Assembly: GCA_963696295.1 (NCBI GenBank)
Contig: CAVOJR010000001.1
Coordinates: 2,880,001 to 2,944,000 of the forward strand
Length of the DNA: 64,000 nucleotides
Reading direction: 5' to 3'
Source of the DNA: an uncultured Chlamydiae bacterium
GTDB taxonomy: Bacteria; Chlamydiota; Chlamydiia; Chlamydiales; JAJFMB01
The notes under the pieces are model-generated. The model ran no database searches and was not told the origin of the DNA. It was given only the letters and a program-made list of their open reading frames with translations. A program made the translations under genes and the position numbers. Numbering within the stretch: position 1 is the stretch's first letter; every line of letters starts with the position of its first letter. This document shows, piece by piece, positions 8,153 to 9,583 of this stretch.

Positions 8153-9583
8153 TTATGGTTGAACGGTTACACTGGCGGGAATAGAAGTATTGCCAACGTT
8201 ATCGACCGAGACGATGTAATAGGTAACCGGTTCGTTTTTACAATTATGAACTTCAAAGCGCAAGGGTTGATCGCTTAAAACCTGGCCAAGTAAAAGCGTG
8301 AGCTCCTGATCTTGATATATTCGAAATTCGGCAATACTTTTGGAAGGAGCGTTCCAAGTTAAGATATTGACATACTCCGTTTGCGTCGGAAATACGTTGG
8401 CTTTTTGATATCCTTTCAAATTTATGGGCGGTGATAATATAGTCAGCGTTTTACTTGGACATTTCTGTCTTGGCTGCCAATCTGTTGGATCTGAACTTTG
8501 TAAATCTAAAAGGTGATCAAGCACATCCTTTGGAGTGCCCCCTGAACGCAAAATGTTTTTGACGATATCTTCTGTTTCGCTGATCAATGACTGGCTTACC
8601 CCATGCAAATGAAGATTCATTCCATATTGTTTGCCTTTGACATCAATTTGCGACATGATTCCGGACAGAATTTGGATAGCAGTGACCATGCTCACGCTAT
8701 TTCCAAAATCCCCTGTCCCCCATTGGCCTGAATGAATACCCGCTGTCGTATTGCCCGGAGAAAATTCGATGAGAGAGGATATTGCTCCAAGATTGCCCAA
8801 AAGAGACTCTTTAAGAAGGTATTCAAGATTGCTTAATTTATATTGTTTGACTGGAATCGGGGGGGAGGTTTGACACCAATTCAGCGAAGCAATGCCAATA
8901 ATATTAACTTGTTCATACGGCTGCTTCAGTGTAATGATATCGCTATAGACTTGAGCTACAGTTATTAGCTTGAGTGCATCCGCATAAGGGACATTTGATA
9001 CGTCAAAGCGCCTAAATACATCAAAAACAATAAAAGGTTGAGCGTCTTCAGTGGTTGGGAATACTCCGGAAGCCCCTGGACTCACTGGAAGAGGAGGATT
9101 GTTCCTTGCCGCATAAGCTAATTGAGCTAATTGTGGAAATTGGAAAAATATACGTTCTTCCTGTAGATTTCCCATTCCCCGAAACCCTCCTCCAAACTTG
9201 TCCGCATCGGCAAAATCGACCCAAAAAGTTCCATCGGGTTTATAATCATATTCGCCAGGATCGGCAAACACACTAAAATTGATGGTGTTTAAATTGATGG
9301 AGGAATTCAATAATGCTTCAAAATTTTTGTCCGACATCGTAATTTGCGACCAATTAACAAAATCTACTTTAGGCTTAGAATAAGGGTAAGAAATTTGACC
9401 GATAGTCCCTTTTAGAAGCGCTTCTTTCTGAGCGTAAGGTTTTTCTGCCAATAACCAGTCACTGAAGGAAGACTGGGTGCCTGTTAAGTCAGTTTTAACC
9501 CTCTTGACATCGATTGCGCTTTGGGGAACATTGGAATGGCTAAAATTTAAAAAAAACAGCGTTAAAAAGAAAAATTTTCTCAT
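8153..9583 (-). CDS. Secreted poly(ADP-ribose) glycohydrolase (PARG)-like macrodomain protein with C-terminal Fn3-like domain
   Basis: Signal peptide MRKFFFLTLFFLNFSHS. WVDFADADKFGGGFRGMGNLQEERIFFQFPQL matches the PARG GGG-x(6-8)-QEE signature, and IHSGQWGTGDFGN matches TGNWGCGAFG. C-terminal LTWNAP...YYIVSVDNVGNTS. Confidence 0.8.
   Translation of the reverse strand: MRKFFFLTLFFLNFSHSNVPQSAIDVKRVKTDLTGTQSSFSDWLLAEKPYAQKEALLKGTIGQISYPYSKPKVDFVNWSQITMSDKNFEALLNSSINLNTINFSVFADPGEYDYKPDGTFWVDFADADKFGGGFRGMGNLQEERIFFQFPQLAQLAYAARNNPPLPVSPGASGVFPTTEDAQPFIVFDVFRRFDVSNVPYADALKLITVAQVYSDIITLKQPYEQVNIIGIASLNWCQTSPPIPVKQYKLSNLEYLLKESLLGNLGAISSLIEFSPGNTTAGIHSGQWGTGDFGNSVSMVTAIQILSGIMSQIDVKGKQYGMNLHLHGVSQSLISETEDIVKNILRSGGTPKDVLDHLLDLQSSDPTDWQPRQKCPSKTLTILSPPINLKGYQKANVFPTQTEYVNILTWNAPSKSIAEFRIYQDQELTLLLGQVLSDQPLRFEVHNCKNEPVTYYIVSVDNVGNTSIPASVTVQP

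Follow-up and report, generated by a model that had tools for sequence, protein, structure and literature searches.

The locus raises the question of what a PARG with a putative export leader would do for a chlamydial bacterium and by which route it would meet its substrate. Within the window (the whole 64,000-nucleotide stretch of DNA that was analyzed), the PARG gene occupies positions 8153 to 9583 of the minus strand, has a ribosome-binding-site-like word, GAGG, at 9588 to 9591 on the same strand, and encodes, from an ATG start, a protein of 476 amino acids (aa) in which a leader is followed by a compact canonical-type PARG domain and a C-terminal Fn3 module. No second PARG-like gene was found in the source genome, and the pattern GGG-X6-8-QEE was found in 1 of 7,221 six-frame open reading frames (ORFs) of this 3.43-Mb genome, namely the ORF at 8153 to 9583. 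The gene lies within a stretch of lower GC content (41% versus 47%), and its GC3 was low, at the 6th percentile among 1,458 long ORFs. A promoter and terminator scan detected no excess over shuffled sequences and nothing upstream of the gene on its own strand.

A sequence-only reading of this DNA had cited three catalytic motifs, and all were located in the product (coordinates on the minus strand, as for all features of this gene). VDFA spans residues 122 to 125 (9209 to 9220), with D123 corresponding to human Asp737; the catalytic loop GGG-X7-QEE, GGGFRGMGNLQEE, spans residues 131 to 143 (9155 to 9193), with both glutamates, E142 and E143, corresponding to human Glu755 and Glu756; and the diphosphate-binding loop GQWGTGDFG spans residues 286 to 294 (8702 to 8728), with D292 encoded at 8708 to 8710. 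Y200 (8984 to 8986) was taken as the tyrosine-clasp equivalent by a sequence-profile alignment of the YG/YA column with Drosophila TGYA, rather than by superposition. D123, Q141, E142, E143, Y200 and F293 were all intact, and roles have been assigned to Asp737, Glu755, Glu756 and Phe875 of human PARG (in the sections of PMC3519477 drawn on here). Among 150 relatives, the residue matching E143 was Glu in 149 and that matching Y200 was Tyr in 141, while EEE replaced QEE in the eight closest homologues. For the adenine-stacking position, Phe902, the profile placed V329 and a two-residue shift placed H327, the latter column being aromatic or His in 143/150 relatives.

The HMM check suggested for the sequence-only reading gave a match to Pfam PARG_cat_C with an E value of 9e-6 that narrowly missed the cut-off (25.9 versus 26.3 bits). 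All 18 family members matched this model, none of the 18 matched PARG_cat_N, and two matched PF10021 (DUF2263), with a best E value of 0.004. The AlphaFold model was confident across approximately residues 21 to 375 and yielded the anticipated macrodomain fold, with residues 22 to 369 aligning to residues 112 to 440 of Tetrahymena PARG (4EPP; Z 22.1, rmsd 3.5, 288 aligned residues). Z scores of 18.4 and 13.7 were obtained with Drosophila PARG and the bacterial-type PARG of Deinococcus, respectively. The best 34 rows listed by Foldseek, in which the macrodomain match had an E value of 2e-10, were all canonical PARGs, and a profile of 37 chlamydial sequences matched canonical PARGs with an E value of ~1e-21 compared to 6e-5 for the bacterial type. 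As the N-terminal accessory region is reduced to ~95 aa (9245 to 9532; modeled confidently from approximately residue 21), the protein represents a compact variant and not a full canonical PARG. Alignments and models supported assigning the product to compact PARGs whose motifs and predicted fold are of the canonical type.

Comparison with canonical PARGs (Tetrahymena, 4EPP; Drosophila, 8ADJ; human, 4B1H; PF05028), whose features include a tyrosine clasp and a large accessory domain (PMC4030884, in part), showed a common macrodomain fold over 288 residues together with VDFA, GGG-X7-QEE, the tyrosine-clasp Tyr and the WGxGxFG loop followed by a QxLAA-type helix. The chlamydial protein differs in its ~360-aa core, short accessory region and identity of only 15 to 17%, and in having Asp in place of Ala874, a Sec leader, a Cys pair and an Fn3 tail. 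Bacterial-type PARGs (DUF2263/PF10021; Thermomonospora, 3SIG; Deinococcus, 5ZDA) are likewise bacterial macrodomain proteins with GGG-X6-8-QEE, but the match to them was weaker and the clasp present in the chlamydial protein is described as missing from that type (within the consulted part of PMC4030884). With MavL/Larg1 (DUF4804), Legionella is another intracellular bacterium that exports ADP-ribosyl hydrolases with a macrodomain, but these lack the PARG motif and are described in a portion of PMC10951314 as arginine-specific metaeffectors, with no detectable activity of MavL reported there on MARylated PARP10 and PARylated PARP1. The chlamydial PARG model gave a Z score of 6.3 against Larg1.

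The sequence-only reading did not mention that Asp occupies position 292, the counterpart of Ala874 in human PARG; bulky substitution at Ala874 reportedly inactivates the human enzyme. The Ala874 backbone binds the diphosphate in human PARG (PMC3519477, as excerpted). All 16 homologues that cover this site had Ala or Val, whereas Asp was found in 9/150 wider relatives. As these nine fall on several separate branches and all have QEE, Asp292 looks tolerated. The protein departed at 10/148 columns invariant in its closest clade (two to eight departures in the other eight members) but at only 3/91 columns in a comparison with the wider family, and its branch length was ordinary (0.20 to 0.26).

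The family was then placed within the phylum and beyond. Seventeen homologues of 264 to 397 aa (355 to 397 aa for the whole ones) were collected, none of which has the tail; one of them (P0011) is from “Ca. Protochlamydia phocaeensis,” whose genome belongs to the same order as the source, in keeping with a chlamydial origin of the latter. Of five homologue genome loci, four carry the name Chlamydiia or Chlamydiales; the remaining one lies in a genome from the order of the source. PARG-like genes were detected in 33/401 genomes of the chlamydial phylum (24 by matching the protein and 30 by matching the Pfam model) but in none of the 30 genomes of the small-genome family, which is likely Chlamydiaceae. 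A representative library contained 4,577 relatives at an E value of ≤0.001, named ones including Arcella, Ceratiomyxa, Ploeotia and one planctomycete. The nearest Atlas clusters were mostly of Myxococcota and Cyanobacteriota and hold compact PARG_cat_C proteins. Scanning metagenomes with the family alignment yielded no locus, and a phage collection queried with one Inc-like PARG relative gave no match.

Trees of 165, 46 and 26 rows were constructed, the first excluding duplicates and representatives of <280 aa and the smaller two being hand-chosen subsets; all were midpoint rooted and lacked animal or Tetrahymena rows, and the EukProt amoeba rows could be symbiont derived. Three clades were resolved with chlamydial members in each, and the signal-peptide family (support, 100/99) nested in a clade (100/98) with chlamydial bacteria as its only named members. 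A clade uniting the signal-peptide family with the three protist PARGs compared, and with it a direct descent from these three, was rejected (AU test, P = 9.7e-6). The description “eukaryote-type” therefore holds for fold and motifs but not for recent origin: compact PARG_cat_C proteins are also bacterial, the phylogenetic check against protist PARGs suggested for the sequence-only reading rejected a clade with the three compared, and these trees gave no sign of a recent capture from eukaryotes. As a eukaryote-like fold is found in a family nested among chlamydiae, this looks like a lineage long resident in these bacteria and repeatedly fitted with export features, the gene at 8153 to 9583 being, on these trees, one branch of a wider chlamydial PARG radiation.

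Other members of this radiation carry different N-terminal features. In five sister proteins, encoded by four chlamydial genomes, two hydrophobic segments lie side by side at the N terminus in the manner of Inc proteins, which face the host cytosol (in the text of PMC3290821 examined). PARG domains behind such Inc-like paired segments were noted at L009 (1489 to 2814), L010, L011, L012 and L030; one genome, G253, carries a tandem pair, and three further ORFs that were judged by eye to be Inc-like (L065) come after L009. Many other members have low-complexity N-terminal extensions, which are possible type III signals. In one genome (G068; L136, positions 2 to 4126), a 1,375-aa open frame has a PARG domain and, behind it, a region in which HECT-like words, among them HSCFN close to the C terminus, can be recognized. 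This region had no Pfam match at an E value of 0.01, and the frame is a possible PARG-ubiquitin ligase fusion. A second chlamydial PARG clade (L014, L017, L019, L020, L024, L027 and others), shared with protist sequences, has F-G-[FY] instead of GGG, and QDE mostly replaces QEE; the first acidic position was Asp in 50/150 PARG representatives.

The signal peptide reported by the sequence-only reading was recovered, from pattern and conservation, as a predicted Sec signal peptide of residues 1 to 17 (9533 to 9583), in which two basic residues precede a hydrophobic run (best seven-residue mean, 2.73); cleavage before N18 is suggested by the alignment. A similar start was observed in 16/17 homologues, the 17th appearing truncated. 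Two conserved cysteines, C237 (8873 to 8875) and C375 (8459 to 8461, at the end of the region common to tail-less homologues), form a candidate disulfide. Both were present in 10 and both missing in 5 full-length family members; since the pair arose in one clade, this pattern represents one event and not covariation. The conserved leader, the Cys pair in 10 members and the confinement of the tail to exported-type proteins together indicate that the protein is likely exported by Sec, in agreement with the export proposed from the sequence. Most PAR is made in the host nucleus; a disulfide combined with the Sec route favors the lumen or surface over that compartment. PMC6717882 (in part) reports chlamydial Sec/type II proteins from the lumen of the inclusion and from the host cytosol.

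The Fn3-like tail was predicted to adopt an Fn3 fold, though as a chlamydial C-terminal subtype and not a generic Fn3 domain. It spans residues 381 to 476 (8156 to 8443), was poorly modeled in the full-length single-sequence AF2 run and was hence refolded with its own alignment, giving a pLDDT of 95.8 and a match to an Fn3 module with a Z score of 12.3 (rmsd 2.4, 87 residues), in agreement with Atlas features. No Pfam or NCBIfam model exceeded its cut-off for the tails scanned. The tail profile gave matches in 193/401 chlamydial-phylum genomes and in 0/30 of the small-genome family (likely Chlamydiaceae), and all 33 tail copies in 30 loci end ≤5 aa from the stop. Among the best 120 of 344 database matches (119 without the query), 72 tails scored >104 bits, each in single copy, and 71 of these lie ≤15 aa from the C terminus; the remaining 47 of the 119 were generic multicopy Fn3 proteins scoring ≤51 bits, none C-terminal. 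Most cargo was of beta-propeller type, had Ig or PKD repeats or resembled glycine-rich passengers. Other source-genome proteins with a C-terminal tail comprise three close copies and two distant ones, with three further weak matches that are not C-terminal. At three of 15 conserved columns, the tail of the PARG departs from the profile (Y43F, R47Q and D68V), other tails departing at one to six. It was found on 1/185 PARG-like proteins, the product studied here, and its absence from the other 184 indicates that it is not needed for the role of the PARG family. At another locus (G000:C1:1059147-1061641), abutting ORFs of 275 and 556 aa jointly resemble one glycine-rich passenger-like protein ending in a tail and may be a split gene.

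In 8/30 tail loci, the next same-strand gene encodes a member of one family of ~200-aa proteins, which mostly have a leader, end in a G-x-G-x-x-F motif and give weak OMP_b-brl/OmpW matches below cut-off. This barrel family was detected in 197/400 scored genomes; tail and barrel were both present in 174, the tail only in 19, the barrel only in 23 and neither in 184, counts in which kin are not independent but both features are patchy within families in similar numbers. Viewed from the barrel side, a tail gene was within ~1.5 kb in 22/29 loci, or 16/23 without the six seed loci, all loci being drawn from the best matches and one locus being unscored. Of the two barrel genes in the source genome, one immediately follows the gene for an 886-aa tail protein, and neither adjoins the PARG gene. 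These associations suggest the tail as a candidate surface-sorting or anchoring tag that the barrel protein would receive, and the pair as a candidate surface-sorting system of chlamydiae. The type IX C-terminal domain of Bacteroidota similarly combines a Sec leader with a single C-terminal seven-strand beta-sandwich on unrelated cargo (PMC5445135, in the part seen), but the chlamydial tail is ~95 aa and of Fn3 type with an OmpW/OMP_b-brl-like partner of ~200 aa. An assignment to type IX cargo was rejected, as the tails scanned matched no T9SS-CTD model in Pfam or NCBIfam; for SprA, the source genome gave a single fragment of 17 bits, below the cut-off of 200, and the control genomes were silent. 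Chlamydial Sec/type II substrates such as CPAF share a signal peptide and a possible route to the lumen or cytosol but belong to an unrelated enzyme class, and no common C-terminal tag is described for them in the passages of PMC6717882 used. A GspD-like secretin match in the source genome was below cut-off.

Taken together, sequence and model make it on balance probable that a compact PARG, exported by Sec and placed at the cell surface by its tail, acts to hydrolyze host ADP-ribose marks at the chlamydia-host interface. The protein would be exported by Sec, lose its leader and fold in the periplasm with a C237-C375 disulfide; a chlamydial barrel protein would then recognize the tail, with or without type II secretion, leaving the enzyme outside the outer membrane and facing the inclusion lumen or host cytosol. 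There, ADP-ribose would be clamped between Y200 and the GGG-X7-QEE and G-D-F-G loops, and protonation of the leaving group would fall to E143, as it does to Glu756 of the human enzyme. Host ADP-ribose signaling would be damped, and free ADP-ribose would be released as a by-product. Possible substrates are PAR chains or a different O-linked mark, for example, ADPr-RNA, which human PARG also removes (PMC11920425, as excerpted). A search for PARP in the source genome found none, which favors this reading but is a weak result given that the control was silent. Against the reading stand Asp292 in the diphosphate loop, the departures at conserved columns of enzyme and tail, the lack of a barrel gene beside the PARG gene, the 184 tail-less PARG-like proteins and the nuclear origin of most PAR. 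More tentatively, an Fn3 sorting domain and a dedicated barrel may constitute a two-part display system of approximately half of chlamydial genomes, loaded here with a working PARG as one arm of a multi-route delivery of PARGs to the host (by Sec, Inc anchor and likely type III).

The same enzyme could instead serve nutrition, with host PAR or ADP-ribosylated debris yielding ADP-ribose that is cleaved and imported as nucleotide and any effect on signaling being incidental. The source genome encodes four NTT-family nucleotide transporters and two further macrodomains, leader-bearing relatives also occur outside the chlamydial clade, and bacteria that lack PARPs have been proposed to recycle PAR (in the part of PMC4245714 consulted). 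Such salvage is nevertheless rather unlikely given the patchy distribution (33/401 genomes), the lack of a neighbor, such as a transporter or NUDIX gene, common to the five loci inspected by eye and the kin with Inc-like anchors or a putative ubiquitin-ligase fusion, which fit host regulation better. Leader, candidate disulfide and surface-type tail would also place the enzyme in the envelope, where it could protect the bacterium by removing ADP-ribose put on its envelope or periplasmic molecules by transferases of the host or competitors, and bacterial PARGs have been suggested as a defense against ADP-ribosylating toxins (PMC4245714, in part). Canonical PARG is, however, described as leaving the final protein-linked ADP-ribose uncut (within the portion of PMC8120803 used), no ADP-ribosyltransferase family was present among the seven neighbors scanned around the PARG gene and a PADLOC scan gave no match, which makes self-protection improbable, more so than salvage. 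These two scans agree with the earlier judgment that an intracellular antitoxin role is unlikely. A DarG-like toxin-antitoxin hydrolase was rejected, as a leader is present and the DarT match, a weak one, is 1.17 Mb away.

Two further explanations concern the integrity of the gene. Asp292 could repel the diphosphate and leave a weakened enzyme or mere ADP-ribose binder, the tail being a recent chance fusion that is drifting. This protein departs most often within its clade, differs at three conserved columns of the tail, is encoded with a low GC3 and carries a fusion unique among 185, but the catalytic and clasp residues are intact, the frame is whole, Asp recurs among relatives, and neither the wider-family departures nor the branch length is unusual; we regard decay as unlikely, to a degree between those given for salvage and self-protection. 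Finally, an assembly error could have made the fusion or the Asp codon, the sequence being known from one contig only and codon 292 lying outside the coverage of reads from three soil runs, which comprised short pieces only. A 160-base soil-metagenome contig, which may stem from the source sample, is identical to 8376 to 8535 across the PARG-tail junction, and the frame is open across it, making such an error very unlikely.

With respect to earlier work, bacterial PARG is discussed as the DUF2263 type in the sections of PMC8120803, PMC4245714, PMC3741636 and PMC4030884 seen, and “PARG” does not occur in the portion of the PMC3482391 text available. Among the best matches in the open-licence literature, none dealt with chlamydial PARGs or with the tail-barrel pair; the search covered main texts, and the supplements of PMC4245714 and PMC3482391 may list such genes. 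Automatic Pfam tags already mark many of these proteins, so the domain as such is in plain view; the apparent novelty lies in the export-fitted chlamydial PARG radiation and the candidate sorting system. If borne out, PARGs of canonical type that are exported by intracellular bacteria would be the bacterial equivalent of viral macrodomains and would make it testable whether amoebae or other hosts use ADP-ribosylation against vacuolar bacteria, and a multi-route delivery would reveal ADP-ribosylation as an antibacterial defense of these hosts. The tail-barrel pair offers a concrete candidate for protein placement on the surface of environmental chlamydiae and, not being found in the 30 members of the small-genome family (likely Chlamydiaceae), would mark a loss towards the pathogens.

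Neighbors of the PARG gene include genes for a Fic protein, a Ser/Thr kinase and a CesT-like chaperone. The Fic-domain gene (9892 to 10845, plus strand) is divergent from the PARG gene, and its motif, HPFLDGNGRTAR, looks intact; the eukaryote-like Ser/Thr kinase (11675 to 12925, plus strand; Pkinase E 3e-10) is a candidate effector. Downstream of the PARG gene, a 232-aa ORF (7158 to 7856, minus strand) had no Pfam or PADLOC match. The CesT/YbjN-like chaperone gene (4708 to 5154, plus strand) converges on that of a 489-aa coiled-coil protein (5151 to 6620, minus strand) with a hydrophobic stretch in its middle, possibly an Inc. Tandem repeats were present at 4272 to 4640 (117 nucleotides, 2.4 copies, and 44 nucleotides, 2 copies) and at 13399 to 13575 (33 nucleotides, 5.4 copies), the latter just upstream of an lpxD-like gene.
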